Positions 29,546 through 59,653 of a DNA stretch of 64,000 nucleotides are shown here, piece by piece. The notes beneath the pieces were generated by a model. It made no database searches. It saw only the letters and a list, made by a program, of their open reading frames with translations, and was not told the origin of the DNA. The stretch spans positions 30,624 to 94,623 of the forward strand of contig METK01000008.1 of the NCBI GenBank assembly GCA_001771315.1. The letters run 5' to 3'. Every line of letters starts with the position of its first letter. The first letter of the stretch is position 1. The stretch comes from a candidate division TM6 bacterium RIFCSPHIGHO2_12_FULL_36_22 (lineage in GTDB: Bacteria; Babelota; Babeliae; Babelales; UBA12409). The translations under genes and the position numbers were made by a program.

Positions 29546-29733
29546 GAAGGTGTAGAATCAATTATATGAGAGGATGTCCATGAATAATTTCAATTTCTTA
29601 TCCAGCAGTATGCTATCACTATTCATTTCTAGGCTCCCTCATCTTCATCATCACTCCAACTAAAGGCTTTATCGACCAGCCTTGATGGTCTTTTTTGTTG
29701 TATATTTAAGTTTTAAGTTATCAGGAGTTTTTG

Positions 29734-31119
29734 ATGAATATTTATTTTATTTCCATTTTTTCAATTTTAACCATTATTTATTTGTATCTTGGCTATATTG
29801 CTTCCAAACGTATAAGTACACTTAAAGACTATTTTTTAGCCGGCAGAGATCTTGGATTTTTTGCTTTGGTATCTACTTTAATTGCCACTCAATTAGGTAG
29901 CGGAACTCTACTAGGGATTGCCCAAAAATCATATGAAGTTGGATATTATGGCATCCTATATGCTCTTGGCATGAGTATTGGTTTCATTATCCTCAGTCTT
30001 GGACTTGCATCAAGAATGCAGGCTCTTGATGTAGCAACTACGGCAGAGCTTTTTGAAACACGATATAATAGTGTAACTTTGAGAAAAATTGCCTCAATTT
30101 TATCCATTATTACATTATGCGGAATTCTTATTGGTCAGATTGTCGCCTCTCGAGAATTTATTGTTGGTATCTTTCAGTCTCAGTCTCTAGGCACAGAGAT
30201 TATGTTCCTACTATTCTGGATCTTTATTATTACCTATACCATTCTAGGTGGTTTGAAAGCAGTTGTTATCACAGATGTATTCCAACTCTTTTATATCATT
30301 GTAGTATTTACTGGAATTTTTGTTTATGCCCTTTGGCAAGAACCAGCAAGCTTTTTTAAGGTTTCTAATCTTTTAGGCACCCAAAAACAATTTAATATAT
30401 CATATTATGAGCTTATGACTTTTTTACCCACCTTAATTGCACCAGCATTATTTAGTCTTATTGAACAAGATCTTGCTCAACGCTTCTTTTCTGCACGTAC
30501 CAAAATAATTGCAACAAGCTCAGCCATTGTTTCCAGTATCTTCATGATTGCTTTTGCAATTATTCCTATTTATTTTGGCATGCAAGCAAAACTGCTTAAC
30601 TTAATCATTCCAGCAGGAAGCAACCCACTCATACCAGGGTTGCAATACTATGCCAATAACTTTGTTTTTGCACTGCTAATATGCGGCCTTATTGCAGCTA
30701 TTACTTCAACAGCAGATTCTTTGCTTTGTGCTATAAGCTCCAACGTTGCACAAGATTTCAAATTCAGTTTTCTTGGAAACAAACAATCAATTCAGCGGTC
30801 ACAATGGATCACCTTGTTTGTCGGAATAAGCATGCTTACCCTCTCCTATTTCATTAATGCAGGGATCATTGATATCATTATCAGCAGCTATAGCATCTCT
30901 ATTAGTACCCTCTTTGTGCCACTCATTATCTGCTATTTTAAAAAGAATGTTTGTAGACAAGCCGCATGGGCCAGTGTAATTATAGGTGCCATTTCCCAAA
31001 TTCTTTTTTGGTTGTACCCAGTATTTCTTGCTGACCTCTATATTATTGGTATCGCAACATTGGCATTCATATTGACCAGTTATACCTGTAAAAAGCTTAA
31101 AACCGGTAGTTATAATTGA
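29734..31119 (+). CDS. sodium:solute symporter family transporter (second SSF paralog)
   Basis: About 461 aa polytopic protein. YFLAGRDLGFFALVSTLIATQLGSGTLLG is an SSF-type N-terminal region. ATG at 29734 with AGGAG 6 nt upstream; the track start at 29731 is TTG. Confidence 0.75.
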   Translation: MNIYFISIFSILTIIYLYLGYIASKRISTLKDYFLAGRDLGFFALVSTLIATQLGSGTLLGIAQKSYEVGYYGILYALGMSIGFIILSLGLASRMQALDVATTAELFETRYNSVTLRKIASILSIITLCGILIGQIVASREFIVGIFQSQSLGTEIMFLLFWIFIITYTILGGLKAVVITDVFQLFYIIVVFTGIFVYALWQEPASFFKVSNLLGTQKQFNISYYELMTFLPTLIAPALFSLIEQDLAQRFFSARTKIIATSSAIVSSIFMIAFAIIPIYFGMQAKLLNLIIPAGSNPLIPGLQYYANNFVFALLICGLIAAITSTADSLLCAISSNVAQDFKFSFLGNKQSIQRSQWITLFVGISMLTLSYFINAGIIDIIISSYSISISTLFVPLIICYFKKNVCRQAAWASVIIGAISQILFWLYPVFLADLYIIGIATLAFILTSYTCKKLKTGSYN

Positions 31120-38058: not shown

Positions 38059-39459
38059 ATGATTCATCGTGTTATACATCGCTTTTTTCCCGATCTTAAT
38101 GACCAAGAGGTACAAAAATTTAGCATACTATCGCTAGGTTTTTTTACAATCGTTGGTGCATATTGGCTTATGCGTCTTTTAAAAGAGACCGTGATGTACA
38201 AGATAGCTTTCCCTATAGAACTTGGCTGGGCATGTGGGCATGGACGTATGATGCAACCATTGGCAAAGTCATTATCACCACTCATGATTATTCTAGTTAT
38301 CCTCCTTTATTCCAAACTTATTGATCGATATAAAAAACAAACACTCTTTTATATCATCTGTTCTGGTTATGCTTTATTTTTTACCGTTATTGGTATTTTA
38401 CTTGGTATAAAATTATCTATGGGTAGCGCCTGTCTTGGTAAGTCACTCCTAGCAGCCGTTGGCTGGGCAGTTTATTTAGGCACAGAAAGTTTTGGATCTT
38501 TGATTATCACCCTTTTTTGGTCATTTGTTGTTAGTATTTCAAAAACTGATGAAGCAAAAAAAGGCTTTCCTCTCATTATTGCAGGTGGACAGCTAGGGGC
38601 AATTATCGGTTCATCCCTCAATTTATTCACTGAGCAATTAGGTGGCACCTGGATTTTATTTTTTATTGCAGCAGCCGCAATTGCCACAATAATTCCAATT
38701 ATTGTCTATTTGATGAAAGTTGTACCAGAAAGCCAATTAATTGGTAACGTAAAAGCTCATGCTTCTGAAGATAAAAAAGAAGGATTCGTTGAAGGATTTT
38801 TAACAGGCATGCAATTGCTATGTACGAAGCCTTATTTGATGGGTATTTTAATAATTTCTACAATCTATGATATTGCAAGTCAAATTATGGATTATCAAAT
38901 GCATTCGCTTGCTGATATAAGTAGTCTATTTCATGGAGAAATTGGCTTTTCTCAATTTCAAGGAATCTATGGTATTACAACCAACACTCTTTCGTTTGCA
39001 ATGGCATTATTAGGTACAAGTTTCCTATTTAAAAAATTTGGAATTAGGCGCTGTCTTCTTATTTACCCATCTGTATTCGCCTGCATTGTTATTACTTTCT
39101 TGGGTTTATATATGAATATGACACTTTCAATCAACCAACTTCTATTCATGTCTTTGTGCGCTATGGTACTTATTAAAACAGTAAGTTTCACAGTTAACAA
39201 CCCCGCCAAGGATATTTTATACATTCCAACAAGCAGAGATGCTCGATTTAAAACTAAAGGTTGGATTGATATGTTTGGTAGCCGAACAACCAAAATGATC
39301 GGCTCTCGCGTTACAGATACGCTTAAACATAGTTTTAATGAACTCATTATTTATGGCGGACTTATTAGCCTTGGCATAATAGGATTCTGGGTCATTGCTG
39401 CAATTCTTGTTGGTAAGAAAAACGAACAACTCGTTAAGAGTGGCGAAATTGTCGAATAA
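38059..39459 (+). CDS. ATP/ADP translocase-type nucleotide transporter (TLC/NTT family)
   Basis: 466 aa with about 12 TM helices. By eye it resembles rickettsial/chlamydial Tlc: N-terminal KFSILSLGFFTIVGAYWLMRLLKETV, central LFWSFVVSISKTDEAKKGFPLIIAGGQLGAIIG (compare LFWQFANQIT..EAKRFY..), and C-terminal PAKDILYIPTSRDARFKTKGWIDMFGSR. GGAGGA SD. Confidence 0.75.
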   Translation: MIHRVIHRFFPDLNDQEVQKFSILSLGFFTIVGAYWLMRLLKETVMYKIAFPIELGWACGHGRMMQPLAKSLSPLMIILVILLYSKLIDRYKKQTLFYIICSGYALFFTVIGILLGIKLSMGSACLGKSLLAAVGWAVYLGTESFGSLIITLFWSFVVSISKTDEAKKGFPLIIAGGQLGAIIGSSLNLFTEQLGGTWILFFIAAAAIATIIPIIVYLMKVVPESQLIGNVKAHASEDKKEGFVEGFLTGMQLLCTKPYLMGILIISTIYDIASQIMDYQMHSLADISSLFHGEIGFSQFQGIYGITTNTLSFAMALLGTSFLFKKFGIRRCLLIYPSVFACIVITFLGLYMNMTLSINQLLFMSLCAMVLIKTVSFTVNNPAKDILYIPTSRDARFKTKGWIDMFGSRTTKMIGSRVTDTLKHSFNELIIYGGLISLGIIGFWVIAAILVGKKNEQLVKSGEIVE

Positions 39460-53264: not shown

Positions 53265-53630
53265 ATGCGTTCGACAGTACAAGATATCAAACGAAGACAA
53301 AAAGAGTCTTTGTTATATAGAGAAATATCCAAACTCTTTCTTGAAGTTGCATTAGATAATCCTGGTTTTCAATCTTTATTTATTAATAAGGTTGTATTAT
53401 CACCAGACAAGGGTTTATGTACTGTTTATTTTTATTCCCCTAAAGGCATTGATTTTTTCAAAACACAGCTTGAAGCATTAAAATTGTTTAAGCCATCTTT
53501 GCGGAAAGCCTTATCTCAAACAATCAATTCTCGTCGTGTACCACAAATTGTATTTGCTTTTGATAGTCAATTAGAAAAGCAAGAACATATTGAACAGCTT
53601 TTGGATCAAATCAAACAAGAAAATGACTAA
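53265..53630 (+). CDS. rbfA: ribosome-binding factor A
   Basis: 121 aa. RRQKESLLYREISKLFLEV...VVLSPDKGLCTVYF is the RbfA KH-like pattern. Confidence 0.8.
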   Translation: MRSTVQDIKRRQKESLLYREISKLFLEVALDNPGFQSLFINKVVLSPDKGLCTVYFYSPKGIDFFKTQLEALKLFKPSLRKALSQTINSRRVPQIVFAFDSQLEKQEHIEQLLDQIKQEND

Positions 53631-54388
53631 TGATAGCATTGCTGTTATTAATTCCTATATTTTTTTGCCTTGGTTCTTTTTTGAATTGCATGGCTTATCG
53701 CTTAGTTCATCTTCAACATCCTCGTACGTCTCGCTCATGTTGTCCAGTATGTAAACAAATTATAGCATGGTATGATTTAATTCCTGTTATATCTTGGATA
53801 TTTTTACGGGCTCGTTGTCGTCGATGCGCTGCGCCGATTTCATTTTTGTATCCACTTATAGAATTACTTACGGTAATAATATTTTTAGGCTTAATATATA
53901 AAATTCCAATGGAATACCTTTTTGGTTACGGAATTTTTTTTGCTGCGCTTATTATCTCCATTCGCACTGATCTAGAAACAATGCTCATTTCTCGATTTGT
54001 AACCCTTTGTCTCATTCCTATTGGATTCATGCTCTCATTACTAGGGCTACTACCCATTCATTTTTCACAAGCTTTGTTGGGAACTATATTTGGTTATTTC
54101 ATTTTATGGGGAATTGCAAAAATGTTTTATCTTTTGACCGGTAAACATGGAATGGGTGAAGGTGATTATGATCTTTTAGCATTTATTGGAAGCTTTACCG
54201 GCGTAGTCGGCGTTTGGCTTTCATTACTATTGGGATCTGTTGTTGGAAGTATTGTAGGCATTCTATTAATTGCCTGGTCAGGAAAAAAGCAAATGACACA
54301 ACCAATTCCATTTGGACCATTTTTAGCCGGTGGAGCTATTTTATATGTGCTTTTTCAAACACAAATTACATCCTTTTTACTATATTAA
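53630..54388 (+). CDS. pilD: prepilin peptidase (A24 family)
   Basis: 252 aa. N-terminal Cys pairs CPVC...RCRRC, polytopic body, aspartate-containing GMGEGDYDLLAFIG. Confidence 0.85.
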   Translation: MIALLLLIPIFFCLGSFLNCMAYRLVHLQHPRTSRSCCPVCKQIIAWYDLIPVISWIFLRARCRRCAAPISFLYPLIELLTVIIFLGLIYKIPMEYLFGYGIFFAALIISIRTDLETMLISRFVTLCLIPIGFMLSLLGLLPIHFSQALLGTIFGYFILWGIAKMFYLLTGKHGMGEGDYDLLAFIGSFTGVVGVWLSLLLGSVVGSIVGILLIAWSGKKQMTQPIPFGPFLAGGAILYVLFQTQITSFLLY

Positions 54389-54837
54389 ACCAAGTCATCC
54401 TGCAATATCTTGATCACATGTTTATCATTGATTGTAATAATATCTGGCTTACCATCCCCATCAATATCCCCGACTGCCGCCGCAACAAAGCTGCCCTTAT
54501 TTGCATGTGTAATACCAGACAACAAATTACCTGCTGCGTGCAAATCACCTTCAAAGTAATTAATGCCGGGGAAACCCGCAAAACCATATGTATAAAGAAA
54601 TTTTCCTTCTGGACTCCATCCTATACCTTCTGATCCTGTTAACTGAGCCGAATACGTTCCATGCTCAGCCCAATGAGCTTTCTGTGCAGCATAAAGCGCG
54701 CCTAAGTTCAAATACACTTCTGTACGTTTAGCCTTAGCAACAAATCTCATGTAACTTGGAATACCAATCATTGCCAAAAACGCAATAATCGCAATAACAA
54801 TCATCAATTCAATGAGTGTGAAACCCTTACAATACAT
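54385..54837 (-). CDS. type IV pilin / pseudopilin
   Basis: Leader MYCKG then FTLIELMIVIAIIAFLAMIGIPSY (class III signal, N-methylation motif with Glu5). C-terminal DIDGDGKPD loop. ATG at 54837 with GGGAGAG upstream. Confidence 0.85.
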   Translation of the reverse strand: MYCKGFTLIELMIVIAIIAFLAMIGIPSYMRFVAKAKRTEVYLNLGALYAAQKAHWAEHGTYSAQLTGSEGIGWSPEGKFLYTYGFAGFPGINYFEGDLHAAGNLLSGITHANKGSFVAAAVGDIDGDGKPDIITINDKHVIKILQDDLV

Positions 54838-54995
54838 TATCAACTCTCCCGTATAAAAAATTAAATTTAAAGTTAAGAATCTTTTCTCATTGATAAAATT
54901 GGCTTAAAAAGCTTTATTCATATTGATTTTAAGCCGCTCACAAATTACTCTATTTGAAAATTTCACAAAGGGCTGTTAAGTTACTTATTATTATT

Positions 54996-55024
54996 TTGAC
55001 ATTTAAAAGTTTGGTACTTATATT
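54996..55024 (+). promoter_or_regulatory. sigma70-like promoter upstream of the folC-like/atp gene string
   Basis: TTGACA-N17-TATATT read directly from the sequence, about 58 nt upstream of the ATG at 55082. Confidence 0.5.
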
Positions 55025-55081
55025 GAAAGTATCAAGGTTTTATTAAAAATTCAAAATTTATATCTATACGGGGAAATCTCA

Positions 55082-56512
55082 ATGAACATTTCGAAGCAAA
55101 AGAGACCAGCCAAAGTTATCACCCCTGAAAAAAATCGTAGCTACTCCGAAATTACTGAATATCTTGACAGTAAGTGGCACGTTTCTTTAATCGATACAAG
55201 CAAAGAAACAATTAAAAAATTAGATAAAGCTCTTGGATCGCCTGGAGCAAAAATACATACGGCGTTTGTTTGTGGTAGTAATGGTAAAAGTTTAACAATT
55301 AATTTTGCAGCACAACTTCTCAAAGAAGAAGGTCTTAAGGTCGGAAGTTTTTATTCTCCACACTTACTTACATATAACGAGCGTATTTCTCTCAACAATG
55401 AAGCTATTGCCAATAAAACATTTGCAGACTTAGCAAATGAAGTAATTAATACTGCTGCTAAGCTTGCTCTCGATCCACATGCACAAGACATACTTACTAT
55501 GACTGCCCTTCTATATTTCAAGAAAAGCAATGTTGATATCGCTCTTTGTGAAATGTCTCTTAATGGTTCATGGGATCCAATCACCATTTGTAGCCCACTC
55601 ATCACAGCAATTACACGTTTAACCGATAAAGAAGAAGAAGAGCTTTCAGCTAAAGAAGCAAACAAAATTATCAAAGAAGCTATGATTGTGGTTAAAAAAG
55701 ATGGTTGGGTTGTATCAGCTGATCAAAGCAAAATGAATCTTCAAGTTATGCAAGATATCACAACTGAAAAAAAAGCTCATTGGGCTATGCCTATTAGAAA
55801 GCTTGCAACTCTTGAATATCCATTCGAACAACTTCATGGCCGCTGCGCTGCACTTGCTGAAAGAATCGCACAACTTTACGTTGAGCATTATGCTACAAAA
55901 AATGTAACTTTTATGGCAAATTCACTTTTGGTTAAACCAAAAGGCCAACGTGGTCGTCCAACATTAGAAGCAAAACGTCAATCAGAACTTAATCCAAAAC
56001 GTACTATTGAACATTTTTGGAAAGAAACACAATCAACACTTCCTGGGCGATTTGAATTACTCAGCAAAGACAAACCATCCATTTTATTGGATAACTCTGA
56101 TAACCTTGATGCATTTAAAAATCTGCTCCTTGGTATTCGTCTTTTACACTACCAACGCCCACTTAAAGGTTTGACAATCATCATTGGTTGTGAAGACAAT
56201 GCACTACACACACAAGAATTTTTAAAAGCAATTCGATATTTCTTTAAAAAGACTGCTGGTTCTATCATATTCTGTCCACTTAAAAAATCTCCTCTCTGCT
56301 ATGATAAAGATGAATCAACATGGGATATAGACAAGATTACAAACGATGTAAAAAACATTAAAGTTAAGGCTAAGACAGCCAAAAACCTTGCTGATGCATA
56401 TGAAACTGCAAAAAAGAGTGTTGATGAACGTCAAGGTCTATTAGTAATCACAGGATCTAACTCTATCTTACAAGAATATTGGAATTATAAAGGCATCAAA
56501 AAGTTTAATTAG
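55082..56512 (+). CDS. FolC-like Mur-ligase-family protein with degenerate catalytic motifs
   Basis: 476 aa. AFVCGSNGKSLTINFAAQLLKEEGLKVGSFYSPHLLTYNERISLNNEAI parallels FolC (GTNGKGS ... SPHL..ERI). The P-loop reads GSNGKS, and the usual T-x-I-x-x-DH segment reads TAITRLTDKEEEE. Confidence 0.5.
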   Translation: MNISKQKRPAKVITPEKNRSYSEITEYLDSKWHVSLIDTSKETIKKLDKALGSPGAKIHTAFVCGSNGKSLTINFAAQLLKEEGLKVGSFYSPHLLTYNERISLNNEAIANKTFADLANEVINTAAKLALDPHAQDILTMTALLYFKKSNVDIALCEMSLNGSWDPITICSPLITAITRLTDKEEEELSAKEANKIIKEAMIVVKKDGWVVSADQSKMNLQVMQDITTEKKAHWAMPIRKLATLEYPFEQLHGRCAALAERIAQLYVEHYATKNVTFMANSLLVKPKGQRGRPTLEAKRQSELNPKRTIEHFWKETQSTLPGRFELLSKDKPSILLDNSDNLDAFKNLLLGIRLLHYQRPLKGLTIIIGCEDNALHTQEFLKAIRYFFKKTAGSIIFCPLKKSPLCYDKDESTWDIDKITNDVKNIKVKAKTAKNLADAYETAKKSVDERQGLLVITGSNSILQEYWNYKGIKKFN

Positions 56513-56530
56513 TAACAAGTAACGCGTAGT

Positions 56531-56788
56531 ATGATTAGCATCATTTACTCAGTAATTTTTGGCATACTAAGCGGTTCAATATATGGGCTTCTCTTTTACT
56601 ATTCTAAAAAGAGAAGCCTCTTTATTTCTAAAAAATCAATCGTTACAGAAAGTGTTCGTTTTATAGCTCTTGCATGCTTTCTTGTTTTTTTCTTGCTCCA
56701 AACACCACTTGACCTTATAATAAGTATGGTGTTTTTTTTAATAGGATTCTGGGGAGTAATCCTTAAACAAGAAAGATTCTTCTCGTGA
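56531..56788 (+). CDS. AtpI/AtpZ-like small membrane protein
   Basis: 85 aa with 3 hydrophobic helices. It sits immediately upstream of the a-subunit gene and overlaps it (GTGA). Confidence 0.5.
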   Translation: MISIIYSVIFGILSGSIYGLLFYYSKKRSLFISKKSIVTESVRFIALACFLVFFLLQTPLDLIISMVFFLIGFWGVILKQERFFS

Positions 56789-57513
56789 TTAATCTTTTCG
56801 AAGTTTCAACGATAAATCCGTTTGCTAGATTTGGTTTAATTCATGCTTTTTGGCATATTAATCTCGAAACACTTTTATATACTTGGGTTGTATTAGCCGT
56901 TGTGATCATTATTGTTGCTATCTTTAACATAGCTCTCGCATACAATCATGACATCCTATTGTTTGGTTTACTTTCGTTTGTAAAAACGTTTAAGGATCTT
57001 GTTACACAAACACTAGGTTTTTATTCATTTGGACATACAGCATTTATTCTGACTTTATTCACTTTTATTTTCCTATCTAACTCTCTTGGCATTATACCCG
57101 GTTTAGAAGAACCAACCAGCGATCTTAATACCACTCTCGCTTTGGGTATTACATCATTTCTATACATACAAATAAACAGTATCCGTGTACACGGTATTTT
57201 TGGATATCTTGGTGAATTTTTTCAGCCATTTTTCTTTATGATGCCACTTAATATTGTCGGCGAGCTTGCAAGCATCATGTCAATTTCATTCCGTCTTTTT
57301 GGTAATATTTTTGGTGGACTCATTATCGGTAAGCTTTATTATGGCGCTATTGGCGGCGTAGCAATACTTGAAATATTAGGAATGATATCTGGCCTTAATT
57401 TGATATTAATTTTGTTTTTAGGTCTTTTTACAGGTGCCGTACAAGCATTTGTATTTTCCATTTTATCCCTCACCTATCTTTCACTAGCGATTCAAATGGA
57501 TGAAGAGGAATAA
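56785..57513 (+). CDS. atpB: F-type ATPase subunit a
   Basis: 242 aa, GTG start. SISFRLFGNIFGGLIIG contains the essential Arg motif (R-L-F-G-N). About 5-6 TM helices. Confidence 0.85.
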   Translation: MINLFEVSTINPFARFGLIHAFWHINLETLLYTWVVLAVVIIIVAIFNIALAYNHDILLFGLLSFVKTFKDLVTQTLGFYSFGHTAFILTLFTFIFLSNSLGIIPGLEEPTSDLNTTLALGITSFLYIQINSIRVHGIFGYLGEFFQPFFFMMPLNIVGELASIMSISFRLFGNIFGGLIIGKLYYGAIGGVAILEILGMISGLNLILILFLGLFTGAVQAFVFSILSLTYLSLAIQMDEEE

Positions 57514-57515
57514 TA

Positions 57516-58478
57516 ATGACACTAGGCTCATTTTTTCATTATGGTAGCATTGCTGGTACTATTGCCTGCAGCGCTTTAGGCATAAGTATCGGCCTAAGTT
57601 ACATAGCCAAAGGCGCTATAGATGCTCTCTATACTCAACCTTCCGCACATAAAGAAATTTCAAAAATATCAATTTTAGCAATGGCACTTACTGAAACTGG
57701 TGGGGTCATTGGTTTAACGGTTTCTCTCATGCTATTTATTACCACCCTCAAGCTAGATAATACCCTCCTTTATCCCGGCCTTGCTCGATTTGGAATATTT
57801 TTTACAACCGGTTTAGTATCACTTTTTGTAGGTATTGTATCTGCGCTTCCAGCTCGACAAGCTTGCTTGTCTGTAGCTCGACAACCTTTTTTTAGTACAA
57901 AAATTATGAATCTTTTACTTATTACCATGTCCATTGTGCAAACACCCATTATCTTCGGCTTTCTTGCAGCTGTCATGATAAATTCTCAAGCCAATACAGC
58001 TGAATCCATTGGTCAAGCACTAGCAATTTTAAGTGCAGGCGTATGCCTTGGAATCGGGTCTATTGGTCCTGCATATGGGCAAAGTATTTATGCAGCACAA
58101 GCATGTGAAACACTCGGCAATAATAGAGATACATATCGAGGAATTTTAACTTTTTCATTAATCAGTCAGGCAATGATTGAGTCTCCAATAATTTTTGCAC
58201 TCTTAATTACCTTAGTTATTCTTGGAACTACATCAAATTTAATGACCCCTATACAAGCCGTAGTAACTACAGTTGCTGGATTTTGTGTTGGTATTAATAA
58301 TATTGCTACCGGTATAAGTTCAGGACGTACCGCAGCTGCTGCAAGCAAGCAAATAACCCATAATTTATCGAGTTATACCGCCATCACACGTACCAGTCTT
58401 ATTGCCCAAGGATTAATTGATACATTTGCAATTTATGGTTTGCTCATTGGATTACTCCTGCTATTCTTAGGAAAATAA
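57516..58478 (+). CDS. atpE: F-type ATPase c subunit, four fused hairpins (8 TM) in one 320-aa polypeptide
   Basis: There are four units of about 80 aa, each with a Gly-rich helix, a polar loop and a carrier helix. Loops: YTQPSAH, ARQPFFS, GNNRDTY, THNLSSY. Carrier positions: ALTE60TGG, SIVQ142TPI, MIE222SPI, LID302TFA, spaced 82/80/80 residues apart. Confidence 0.75.
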   Translation: MTLGSFFHYGSIAGTIACSALGISIGLSYIAKGAIDALYTQPSAHKEISKISILAMALTETGGVIGLTVSLMLFITTLKLDNTLLYPGLARFGIFFTTGLVSLFVGIVSALPARQACLSVARQPFFSTKIMNLLLITMSIVQTPIIFGFLAAVMINSQANTAESIGQALAILSAGVCLGIGSIGPAYGQSIYAAQACETLGNNRDTYRGILTFSLISQAMIESPIIFALLITLVILGTTSNLMTPIQAVVTTVAGFCVGINNIATGISSGRTAAAASKQITHNLSSYTAITRTSLIAQGLIDTFAIYGLLIGLLLLFLGK

Positions 58479-58504: not shown

Positions 58505-59653
58505 ATGCAGAAATTAAATAAAAAAAATAAACCTACTATTGTTTATATAATAACCAAACTTGAACTTGGTGGTGCACAAAAAATCTGCCTTTCCTTGTTT
58601 GAAGACCTTCAACAAAAAGATGTCGATACATATCTCATTTCTGGAACAACTGGTCCTCTTGTCGAACAAGCAAAAAAAAATCCTCACACAATCTTACTTG
58701 AGACCATGACACGAGAAGTATCTACCACAGGATTTTTTAGTGAACTAAGAAATTTTTATCAAATTTTTCGCGCATTAAGAAAAATCAAAAAAAAGAATCC
58801 CAACATTATTGTACATACACATAGCACCAAAGCTGGCCTTATTGGTCGCTGGGCTGCCTGGTTTGCCGGTATTAAAAAGAAAGTTCATACAGTTCATGGA
58901 TTCGGCTTTCATACACACCAACATATGGCCGTATGGTTTGGTATTTATTTTTTAGAACTTATTACAAGCCTTATAACTACCCACTTTGTTTGTGTTTCAT
59001 CTGCTGACATTAAACAAGGAATTAAACTTTTTCCTCGATTTGCAAAAAAAAGTAGTATTATCCGCGCGGCAGTACCATCTCAAGAATTTTACATTCCAGC
59101 TCGTAAATTAATTGAAGTTCATAATAAGTTTGTATTTGGTACTGTTGCTTGCTTTAAGCCACAAAAAAACCTTTTTGACTTATTAAAAGCATTTAAAAAA
59201 GTATACATTCAATATCCTCAAGCACGTTTAGAAATTATTGGTGATGGACAATTACGCATAGCACTTGAAGCATGGATCGATCATCATGGACTCAATAATG
59301 CGGTAAAATTACATGGTTGGCAACATGCTGTAGCACCTATTATGTGTAACTGGAATACATTTGTTCTCAGTTCTCTTTGGGAAGGCCTTCCATGTGCCAT
59401 TATTGAAGCTCGATTACTTAAATTACCTGTTTTAAGTTATAATACGGGAGGTATTCATGATGTTATCTCCAATGGTAATAATGGATTTTTATATCCACAG
59501 GGCCACTGGGGCGAACTTGCAGATGGCATGATAGAAGTTATGAAAGATAAGAAATTATACAGCAAACTATGCTCATTCAAAGATGATTTATCAGCATTTG
59601 AAAAAGAAACCATGATTACGCAACATGATCAGCTTTATCAGCAACTTGGATAG
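58505..59653 (+). CDS. glycosyltransferase, GT4-like (GT-B fold)
   Basis: 382 aa. N-terminal KLELGGAQK, C-terminal LSSLWEGLPCAIIEARLLKLPVLSYNTGGIHDVI (E-x7-E type motif). Confidence 0.8.
   Translation: MQKLNKKNKPTIVYIITKLELGGAQKICLSLFEDLQQKDVDTYLISGTTGPLVEQAKKNPHTILLETMTREVSTTGFFSELRNFYQIFRALRKIKKKNPNIIVHTHSTKAGLIGRWAAWFAGIKKKVHTVHGFGFHTHQHMAVWFGIYFLELITSLITTHFVCVSSADIKQGIKLFPRFAKKSSIIRAAVPSQEFYIPARKLIEVHNKFVFGTVACFKPQKNLFDLLKAFKKVYIQYPQARLEIIGDGQLRIALEAWIDHHGLNNAVKLHGWQHAVAPIMCNWNTFVLSSLWEGLPCAIIEARLLKLPVLSYNTGGIHDVISNGNNGFLYPQGHWGELADGMIEVMKDKKLYSKLCSFKDDLSAFEKETMITQHDQLYQQLG

Follow-up and report, generated by a model that had tools for sequence, protein, structure and literature searches.

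A four-hairpin F-type c subunit with three ion sites, conserved across the Dependentiae, is probably the rotor proteolipid of an ATP-driven ion pump

The rotor proteolipid described here, termed c4, consists of four F-type c hairpins fused into one chain of 320 amino acids. Its gene lies in a window of 64,000 nt (the whole stretch of DNA analyzed, to which positions refer) on contig METK01000008.1 of candidate division TM6 bacterium RIFCSPHIGHO2_12_FULL_36_22, a metagenome-assembled genome (MAG) of the Dependentiae (TM6), a phylum of intracellular bacteria that take ATP from their hosts. c4 is F-type rather than V-type, is encoded directly after an ordinary F-type subunit a, and retains a carboxylate in three of its four hairpins. 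It is probably the rotor proteolipid of the Dependentiae F1Fo ATPase, an enzyme that would pump ions at the expense of ATP, with three ion sites for every four hairpins.

Canonical F-type c subunits are single hairpins of 70–90 residues with one ion site each, and they form homomeric rings of 8–17. In the usual account, a synthase became a pump once its c hairpin had been duplicated and carboxylates had been lost. The usual examples are the V/A-type enzymes, where hairpin multiplication and carboxylate loss are classically linked to ATP-driven pumping, and one F-type oddity, Acetobacterium woodii c1, which is a minor part of its ring. There appears to be no earlier account of an F-type rotor subunit with four hairpins. 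The initial annotation of the window, made from the DNA sequence alone, was aware of none, and the full-text literature searched, of incomplete coverage, likewise describes no F-type c with four hairpins and no c with more than two F-type hairpins. With the same limit of coverage, nothing was found that connects Dependentiae to c-rings or reports an unusual Dependentiae c subunit.

Organization of the locus

The locus consists of three open reading frames (ORFs):

56531–56788, forward strand: candidate AtpI-like small membrane protein, 85 amino acids, three transmembrane segments; recognized as an ORF and by its position upstream of atpB.
56785–57513, forward strand: F-type Fo subunit a (atpB), 242 amino acids, GTG start; PF00119.
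57516–58478, forward strand: c4, 320-residue rotor proteolipid of four fused F-type c hairpins, ATG start; PF00137.

The atpB ORF overlaps the 85-residue ORF by 4 nt, and the ATG of c4, with GAGGA as its Shine–Dalgarno sequence, lies 2 nt past the atpB stop. A GT4 glycosyltransferase starts at 58505, 27 nt beyond the last base of the c4 stop. All of these reading frames lie exactly where the initial annotation had placed them. Across loci, the gap between atpB and c4 ranges from −29 to +31 nt, most commonly a 4-nt overlap, which indicates that the two genes are co-expressed. Promoter and terminator scans gave sites no more numerous than in shuffled sequence and defined no clear transcription unit.

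Family membership and fold of c4

The whole of c4 matches PF00137 (ATP-synt_C) in four stretches (E = 9.7e-29, 99.9 bits). Each 80-residue quarter also exceeds the cutoff of 24 bits when searched alone, well above what chance would give:

57516–57755, forward strand: hairpin 1, residues 1–80; PF00137 28.7 bits; carrier E60 (codon 57693–57695), T61.
57756–57995, forward strand: hairpin 2, residues 81–160; PF00137 26.6 bits; Q142 (codon 57939–57941); ARQPF loop, residues 121–125.
57996–58235, forward strand: hairpin 3, residues 161–240; PF00137 44.1 bits; carrier E222 (codon 58179–58181), S223.
58236–58478, forward strand: hairpin 4, residues 241–320 and stop; PF00137 38.4 bits; carrier D302 (codon 58419–58421), T303, Y307.

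The carrier positions E60, Q142, E222, and D302 had been read correctly from the start, while the number of carboxylates, first given as two or three, is three (E60, E222, and D302). An AlphaFold2 monomer, built from a 51-sequence alignment, has the anticipated eight long helices, with a predicted local distance difference test (pLDDT) score of 95.1 and a predicted template modeling (pTM) score of 0.91. Foldseek places this model closest to A. woodii c1 among the structures of the PDB (4bem_J, E = 1.4e-4, root-mean-square deviation 2.0 Å over 155 columns), followed by Enterococcus hirae NtpK and eukaryotic c. Every match covers about half of c4 (query-normalized TM-score, TMq, 0.40–0.44), and therefore no solved chain has four hairpins.

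In NCBIfam, the top models are F-type c (~82–88 bits), and V-type K models reach no more than 43.5 bits; the best F-type c equivalog reaches 87.7 bits, below its cutoff of 116. PDB sequence matches at E ≤ 0.01 are all F-type, led by A. woodii c1 (8.2e-9) and continuing with Spirulina, chloroplast, Ilyobacter tartaricus, and F. nucleatum; no V-type chain is found at this threshold. A V/A-type proteolipid was rejected on the V-type K scores, on the F-type a next to c4, and on the zero counts of NtpA, NtpB, and NtpI in the relative Babela massiliensis. The alternate F1Fo enzyme known as N-ATPase (atpDCQRBEFAG) was rejected as well: TIGR03306 (94 bits, cutoff 302) and TIGR03322 (70 bits, cutoff 131) both score under the standard F-type models, the operon structure is absent, and the small upstream protein matches neither AtpR nor AtpQ. 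The original description of an F-type four-hairpin c beside an ordinary F-type a, with one of four ion sites lost, is upheld by the four PF00137 matches, the PF00119 match, and Q142.

Conservation across the Dependentiae

Far from being confined to this genome, the c4 gene is universal in the Dependentiae phylum. In the databases, the window protein corresponds exactly to OGB97580.1 (“hypothetical protein A3F06_03550”, candidate division TM6 bacterium RIFCSPHIGHO2_12_FULL_36_22), and the identical ORF is present in independent NCBI, JGI, ENA, and Logan assemblies. A protein search returned 670 matches, the best 120 of which are all full-length (307–331 residues, 41–87% identical); residue counts given below out of 120 refer to these best 120 of 670 homologues. 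The family comprises more than 120 clusters at 90% identity, all of ~320 residues, with pairwise identities of 36–91%. An exhaustive search of 1.84 billion representatives gave 137 clusters (50% identity) at E ≤ 1e-30, nearly all of 305–325 residues and collinear.

A scan of one genome per GTDB species located 80 c4 loci, nearly all labelled Dependentiae or Babeliales, with closed chromosomes among them. Hidden Markov models (HMMs) specific to each hairpin (h1 to h4) recover the order h1-h2-h3-h4 in 82 intact ORFs from ~80 species, and the sole exception is cut by a contig end. Orthologous fused genes in related genomes, which the initial annotation had proposed as a check, are thus plentiful, and the quadruple hairpin is found phylum-wide. 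The closed genome of the cultured Babela massiliensis encodes BAB00271.1, a protein of 320 residues and eight transmembrane segments annotated “AtpE” (PMC4378268 supplement), a table entry that its authors left without comment (PMC4378268). BAB00271.1 follows AtpB and an 84-residue protein with three transmembrane segments, in the same RpsU-RbfA-PulO-PilE-FolC neighborhood as in the window. Databases label c4 genes “ATP synthase F0 subunit c” or “hypothetical protein”.

Two scanned loci (L052 and L072) and many “uncultured Pseudomonadota” records contain a typical Dependentiae a–c4 locus under the labels Alteromonas naphthalenivorans, Saccharimonadales, or Pseudomonadota. These odd taxon labels are probably due to mislabelling or mis-binning of public MAGs.

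Anatomy of the four hairpins

The carrier residues read EQED in 75/120 homologues and EQEE in 38/120, together 113/120. Position 60 in hairpin 1 is Glu in 118 and Asp in 2, followed by T61 in 119. In hairpin 2, Q142 is found in 116/120, and R122, Q123, and P124 are invariant. E222 of hairpin 3 is present in all 120. Position 302 in hairpin 4 is Asp in 80 and Glu in 39, and the same hairpin carries Y307 (118/120), S269 (120/120), and G270 (119/120). The residue following the carrier is Ser or Thr in all four hairpins.

Hairpin profiles share 19–35% identity with one another (they differ by 65–81%), while each hairpin is conserved across species. By this comparison, the four are judged to be homologous but old. 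A simple double duplication, with hairpin 1 resembling hairpin 3 and hairpin 2 resembling hairpin 4, was ruled out, as the profiles show no such pattern and hairpins 3 and 4 are the closest pair. Each hairpin has its own conserved loop: QP in hairpin 1, ARQPF in hairpin 2, NR..Y in hairpin 3, and a weaker Q-I..N-P in hairpin 4. The three inter-hairpin linkers are the most variable segments of the protein.

Hairpin 2 has the most conserved sequence and the most conserved loop, and it is the only hairpin with the canonical ARQP loop. Because this conservation persists despite the lost carboxylate, hairpin 2 is best read as a specialized part of c4 and not as a decaying one. Foreign hairpins never score best on its HMM. 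Hairpin 4 is the most “generic”, with single-hairpin c subunits from other operons scoring best on its HMM.

The ion sites were compared with residues Q32, E65, S66, and Y70 of I. tartaricus c:

Hairpin 1: Q32 equivalent, Glu or Gln (Leu in the window protein); E65 equivalent, Glu; S66 equivalent, Thr; Y70 equivalent, Met or Ile.
Hairpin 2: Q32 equivalent, Ser; E65 equivalent, Gln; S66 equivalent, Thr; Y70 equivalent, Phe.
Hairpin 3: Q32 equivalent, Leu (Gln in the window protein); E65 equivalent, Glu; S66 equivalent, Thr or Ser; Y70 equivalent, Phe.
Hairpin 4: Q32 equivalent, Ser; E65 equivalent, Asp or Glu; S66 equivalent, Thr; Y70 equivalent, Tyr.

The helix-1 site of hairpin 1, position 27 (codon 57594–57596), is Glu or Gln in 106/120 homologues and Leu in the window protein. 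Position 189 of hairpin 3 (codon 58080–58082) is mostly Leu and is Gln in the window protein. All four homologues with Leu or Ile at position 27, the window protein included, carry Q189. The helix-1 polar residue of the ion site seems to swap between hairpins, a hint that the c4 family retains one or more hairpins of the form “Q/E....E[T/S]”. The motif “Q....E[T/S]” is a simple Na+ signature (PMC7911925), and Q189...E222-S223 in hairpin 3 of the window protein reads as a signature of this type.

Subunit a and the small upstream protein

The atpB product is an ordinary F-type a subunit, as initially described. It matches PF00119 with E = 1.8e-36 and 126.5 bits (cutoff 33.9), and its 14 NCBIfam matches are all F0F1 subunit a models (one of them the alternate-F1F0 A model, TIGR03306), each under its equivalog cutoff. 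It aligns over its full length with the solved chloroplast, Bacillus PS3, and mycobacterial a subunits and carries the motifs PTxDxNTT, SFRLFGN, and QAxVF. SFRLFGN is intact, starting at 57286, and contains the essential Arg170 (codon 57292–57294).

In at least 37 scanned loci, the gene immediately before atpB encodes an orthologue of the small upstream protein (81–108 residues, three transmembrane segments, recognized by a G..YG motif); the Babela orthologue is BAB00273.1 (84 residues, three transmembrane segments). G15, Y18, G19, and an intramembrane R43 are invariant in 28 sequences. The sole recurrent Pfam family is PF03899 (ATP-synt_I), a weak match found in 8 of the 28 orthologues, with a best E of 0.0028 and none at the gathering score. 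The window copy has no significant Pfam or NCBIfam match. The protein, initially named AtpI/Z-like, is thus a candidate AtpI by its position and by a weak resemblance of the family, with no backing from the window copy itself. AtpI, an assembly factor, is needed when the A. woodii enzyme is produced in E. coli (as cited in PMC7911925 and PMC9171764). A role of the small protein in ring assembly is plausible, if weakly supported.

Composition of the rotor

As proposed here, c4 would present four covalently linked hairpins with eight transmembrane helices, the termini and linkers being periplasmic and the four polar loops facing F1. A whole number n of c4 chains would form a ring of 4n hairpins and 3n ion sites, moving n ions per ATP (2, 3, or 4 for n = 2, 3, or 4), which is 25% fewer than a ring of the same size made of single hairpins. 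The ring would turn against Arg170 of the F-type a encoded directly upstream, and the small AtpI-like protein would probably assist its assembly. Hairpin 2, with its ARQP loop and invariant Gln, is probably the main docking site for the gamma/epsilon foot. F1 and the stalks would be encoded at other, scattered loci.

Whether c4 builds the ring by itself is a narrower matter. A homomeric (c4)n ring that replaces the single-hairpin ring, with every fourth site permanently empty, is put forward tentatively, as a possibility that falls somewhat short of probable. The 10 kb on either side of c4 hold no single-hairpin c in any of 82 loci, and the 1.73 Mb around a–c4 and atpG yielded none either. If the ring is homomeric, its ion/ATP ratio is the exact integer n. 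Three chains would give 12 hairpins, 9 sites, 3 ions per ATP, and a threefold symmetry that matches F1. With two chains, the ratio would fall to 2 ions per ATP, below every value (2.66–5.6) quoted for single-hairpin rings (PMC9171764). The hairpin without a carboxylate would then be a fixed docking site for gamma/epsilon. The phylum would have re-run the V-ATPase route independently in the F-type lineage, with hairpin fusion and site loss leading to a dedicated ATP-driven pump in a whole phylum of energy parasites, and this could be approached experimentally in cultured Babela or Chromulinavorax.

It is unlikely, though the best surviving of the alternatives, that the rotor is a hybrid in which c4 contributes one or a few copies to a heteromeric ring and single-hairpin c subunits from an unlinked locus, possibly beside atpF, make up the rest. 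The arrangement has precedents: four- and five-hairpin c genes elsewhere are followed at once by an 82–83-residue single-hairpin c in canonical operons, and a multi-hairpin c followed by a single-hairpin c is the layout of A. woodii and C. aceticum (PMC7911925). A. woodii c1 is also the best structural and sequence match of c4, the scattering of Dependentiae atp genes makes an unlinked atpE conceivable, and the COG table of Babela counts COG0636 twice. Yet the expected single-hairpin c is missing from the 1.73 Mb of Dependentiae DNA around a–c4 and atpG. Moreover, c4 keeps three of four carboxylates, whereas the multi-hairpin proteins of hybrid operons keep one of five or two of four, and its hairpins are not one-to-one orthologous to theirs. 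The COG0636 counts are themselves erratic, with TM6SC1 at zero despite an atpB.

Direction of the enzyme and the transported ion

The window encodes a presumed source of ATP, whose early identification is confirmed by its Pfam score and with it the picture of an ATP-importing energy parasite:

38059–39459, forward strand: TLC-family ATP/ADP translocase (presumed ATP source); PF03219 76.9 bits, cutoff 21.

Two sodium:solute symporter family proteins are encoded at 3322–4734 and 29731–31119. Judged by their families, the translocase and the symporters fit a cell that would import ATP and spend an ion gradient, possibly of Na+, on uptake. ATP/ADP translocases are a hallmark of the phylum (PMC4776705). 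No electron transport chain is reported for Dependentiae, and reversal of the ATP synthase, with ATP hydrolysis, has been proposed to maintain a gradient (PMC4776705; PMC6561590). In terms of ΔGp = nFΔμ, fewer ions per ATP give a larger gradient from hydrolysis and make synthesis harder (PMC9171764). At 50–60 kJ/mol, hydrolysis would be expected to build at most ΔGp/(nF), or roughly 170–200 mV for n = 3 and 260–310 mV for n = 2. Because ATP is imported, no electron transport chain is reported, and symporters are encoded in the window, the best reading is an enzyme that most likely hydrolyzes ATP to pump H+ or Na+ and thereby energizes secondary transport. The initial annotation had suggested such a pump. 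Its suggestion agrees with the Dependentiae genome papers (PMC4776705; PMC6561590); the direction is one that we infer, and the drop in ions per ATP is only 25% for a given ring size.

Operation as a synthase is less likely still than a hybrid ring. ATP would in this case be made from a gradient set up by a membrane pyrophosphatase or by solute/ion exchange with the host, and the lower ratio would be an adaptation of coupling. An enzyme with a V-type-like, site-depleted c does synthesize ATP at 90–150 mV (PMC9171764), TM6 genomes encode a pyrophosphate-energized pump (PMC4776705), and the full F1 set is retained. However, neither a respiratory chain nor another strong primary pump is reported for the phylum, ATP is imported by the TLC translocase, a lower ion/ATP ratio raises the gradient that synthesis needs (PMC9171764), and the Na+-coupled symporters of the window consume the gradient.

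Location of the F1 genes

F1Fo genes were sought in 94 loci (1.73 Mb) by a P-loop motif scan and by tblastn with all E. coli and L095 F1Fo subunits, L095 being a scanned locus outside the Dependentiae. Only a, c4, and gamma were found. Alpha, beta, delta, epsilon, and b are absent within 10 kb of c4 in 83 a–c4 loci. In the present genome, b, delta, alpha, gamma, beta, and epsilon were found neither in the 64-kb window nor in the 10 kb past each end, in line with the initial statement that they are not in this locus.

The same genes are recorded in a relative. The COG table of Babela lists AtpA, AtpD, AtpG, AtpC, AtpH, AtpF, and AtpB in one copy each, and NtpA, NtpB, and NtpI at zero. With Babela AtpG as the probe, 665 Dependentiae-type gamma homologues were found. 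On a chromosome of 1,417,897 bp, gamma lies at ~509 kb and c4 at ~582 kb; on a contig of 1,758,355 bp, they lie at ~257 kb and ~1,059 kb. Tens to hundreds of kb thus separate atpG from a–c4. Four Dependentiae lineages have a solitary atpG, consistently arranged as tsaE-yacP-atpG and without alpha or beta beside it:

L088, 10001–10843: solitary atpG (F1 gamma).
L090, 10001–10825: solitary atpG (F1 gamma).
L092, 10001–10825: solitary atpG (F1 gamma).
L093, 10001–10888: solitary atpG (F1 gamma).

The atp genes are scattered across the phylum, and the missing F1 neighbors of c4 reflect scattering and not absence. A fragmented atp operon is unusual for bacteria. Attempts to find beta in IMG/VR did not yield a Dependentiae gene: a scan with a single beta protein found nothing, and a scan with a beta alignment returned three contigs that were set aside as gammaproteobacterial, 85–94% identical to E. 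coli beta.

The initial annotation had also considered that a and c might form an F1-independent module. In this form of the idea, a, c4, and the small protein would be a stand-alone ion-conducting or ion-exchanging device that is never coupled to F1. This is very improbable. The a–c4 pair is indeed tight and conserved, has none of alpha, beta, delta, epsilon, and b nearby in any of the 83 loci, is separated from gamma on both chromosomes where the two were located, and is possibly co-transcribed with non-atp neighbors. Gamma, however, is conserved phylum-wide, shares chromosomes with a–c4, and is itself solitary, so that the separation is genome-wide. The F1 set listed for Babela, alpha, beta, delta, epsilon, and b included, likewise makes such a module unlikely. 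Hairpin 2 keeps an invariant ARQP loop of the F1-binding type, and the COG table has one a-type stator gene per genome.

The remaining alternative, that c4 is an artefact or a misassignment (four tandem single-hairpin c genes merged by error, a V/A-type proteolipid, or an unrelated family with eight transmembrane segments), has the a priori rarity of such fusions and weak V-type K NCBIfam matches (~43 bits) in its favor and can practically be dismissed, because the uninterrupted frame is conserved across species (82 intact ORFs in ~80 species and a cultured, closed genome) and identical in independent assemblies, F-type models score about twice as high as V-type ones, PDB sequence matches include no V-type chain, the partner is an F-type a, and Babela lacks V-type subunits.

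Evidence against a c4-based, ATP-driven pump

Several points weigh against c4 as the rotor of an ATP-driven pump. For a given ring size, losing one site in four is only a 25% gear shift. Reduced-site rotors still synthesize ATP (Litty and Mueller, PMC9171764), and because of this the direction of the enzyme is not readable from the c subunit. The Na+ signature is only partial: hairpin 4 alone has an equivalent of the Tyr, and Ala, Pro, or Phe stands in place of Thr67. Conservation is the sole evidence for docking at hairpin 2. As to F1, atpG was not found in 84 kb of this MAG, and the Babela COG table is the one source for alpha, beta, delta, epsilon, and b in Dependentiae. The search for a single-hairpin c covered only the 1.73 Mb around a–c4 and atpG, and the COG0636 count of 2 in Babela may stand for a second gene or for two footprints on one protein.

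Comparison with other rotors

The known subunit nearest to c4 is c1 of A. woodii and Clostridium aceticum (PDB 4BEM chain J). Both belong to the F-type lineage, have fused hairpins, and carry one Glu-to-Gln replacement (“QT” for “ET”; Q142-T143 in hairpin 2 of c4, equivalent to the “Q....QT” hairpin of c1), and both genes come straight after atpB, in an operon that includes an AtpI-type factor or, for c4, a candidate for one. They differ in that c1 has two hairpins (~18 kDa) and one live site, whereas c4 (~32 kDa) has four hairpins and three sites. The dead hairpin is the second of two in c1 and the second of four, and the most conserved, in c4. In A. woodii, c1 is a minority subunit, with one copy joined by nine single-hairpin c2/c3 whose genes are adjacent (PMC9171764; PMC7911925), whereas no single-hairpin c2/c3 gene lies within 10 kb of c4 in the 82 loci. 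A. woodii makes ATP by Na+ respiration, while Dependentiae import it.

V/A-type proteolipids (eukaryotic c/c′/c″, E. hirae NtpK, and archaeal K with 2, 3, or 13 hairpins) resemble c4 in having multiplied hairpins and lost some carboxylates, and their double-hairpin fold superposes on half of c4 with a target-normalized TM-score of 0.76–0.88. In contrast to them, c4 has an F-type sequence and its partner is a PF00119 a rather than subunit I/a. According to a 2022 specialist paper (PMC9171764), c subunits have 1, 2, 3, or 13 hairpins in archaeal enzymes and just one in bacterial F-type enzymes, and the four hairpins of c4 fall outside the archaeal list. The c4 fusion is an independent event within the F-type lineage.

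Each quarter of c4 resembles canonical AtpE (E. coli, I. tartaricus, Spirulina, and chloroplast) in being a hairpin with a Gly-rich helix 1, a polar loop, and, except in hairpin 2, a mid-helix-2 carboxylate, encoded beside atpB. Asp or Glu is present in helix 2 of hairpins 1, 3, and 4, and Gln142 takes its place in hairpin 2. The chain has 320 residues and four hairpins where a canonical c has a single hairpin of ~70–90. In a ring of c4 chains, hairpins would thus come in multiples of four, with every fourth site empty. Like a canonical c, c4 is encoded with an F-type a (atpB ends 2 nt upstream) in genomes that have F1, according to gamma in two relatives and the Babela COG table.

The exhaustive search also uncovered multi-hairpin c proteins in other bacteria. 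P0385 (E/Q/Q/E) and P0359 (E/E/E/Q) have four hairpins, and P0323 and P0364 have five with a single Glu (E/Q/Q/Q/Q). P0385 and its like P0400 (E/Q/Q/E), together with P0323 and P0364, resemble c4 as F-type fusions of 324–411 residues encoded directly after atpB, with a “QTP” motif as in hairpin 2. They differ from c4 in their fewer live sites and in hairpins that are not one-to-one orthologous to h1–h4; orthology hairpin by hairpin was ruled out by HMM comparison. Two of their genes were examined in context:

L094, 8001–9293: four-hairpin c, 324 residues, E/Q/Q/E (P0400).
L095, 8001–9497: five-hairpin c, 406 residues, E/Q/Q/Q/Q (P0323).

In both, the order is atpZ-atpI/ORF-a-c(multi)-c(single, 82–83 residues)-b-b, continued by delta-alpha-gamma-beta-epsilon in L095 only. 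The hosts are richer in GC (49–56%) and are not Dependentiae. These operons apparently encode undescribed hybrid rotors of the A. woodii kind with longer fusions. A further protein, P0356, has 968 residues, is Trp-rich, and contains ~12 tandem c-type hairpins, each with a carboxylate motif of the “ALVESAAIYGL” type; its cluster has 12 members, on contigs of up to 155 kb. Going by its sequence, P0356 may form a single-chain rotor comparable to the 13-hairpin subunit of Methanopyrus.

Significance

c4 is F-type, has four hairpins and three sites, is conserved across a phylum, and is possibly the only rotor subunit of its enzyme. Dependentiae also have independent physiological grounds for running the enzyme in reverse, since they import ATP and are reported to lack a respiratory chain. 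The protein may be regarded as another natural experiment, independent of the first, on the way in which the ion/ATP ratio is set by fusing hairpins and losing sites, in this case with a ring stoichiometry restricted to multiples of four. The separate loop that has evolved in each hairpin could show which c loops bind gamma and epsilon. Annotation pipelines label c4 “hypothetical” or plain “subunit c”, which means that metabolic reconstructions miss the altered coupling ratio. The c proteins of 4, 5, and 12 hairpins in other uncultured bacteria suggest that fusion of rotor subunits is much commoner than the literature implies.

Neighboring genes

Positions 53630–58478 of the window hold the block RpsU-RbfA-prepilin peptidase-(type IV pilin, opposite strand)-FolC-like-small transmembrane protein-atpB-c4. 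The order from RpsU to c4 is shared by this MAG, loci L001, L003, and L084, and genes 272–279 of B. massiliensis, at a protein identity of only ~45–50%. The sole strong promoter-like match (11/12) lies at 54996–55024, upstream of the folC-like gene. This gene, upstream of the atp genes at 55082–56512, encodes a 476-residue protein whose orthologue is named FolC in Babela; its Mur-ligase matches are sub-threshold (22.4 and 17.4 bits), pointing to a divergent folylpolyglutamate-synthase or Mur-ligase-like protein.

Dependentiae flanks (L001, 1–2531; L088, 10924–15723; L090, 7035–19237) are rich in eukaryote-like proteins with C2H2 zinc fingers, ankyrin repeats, and F-box-like domains. In L090, a group II intron reverse transcriptase and an IS605 OrfB adjoin atpG.

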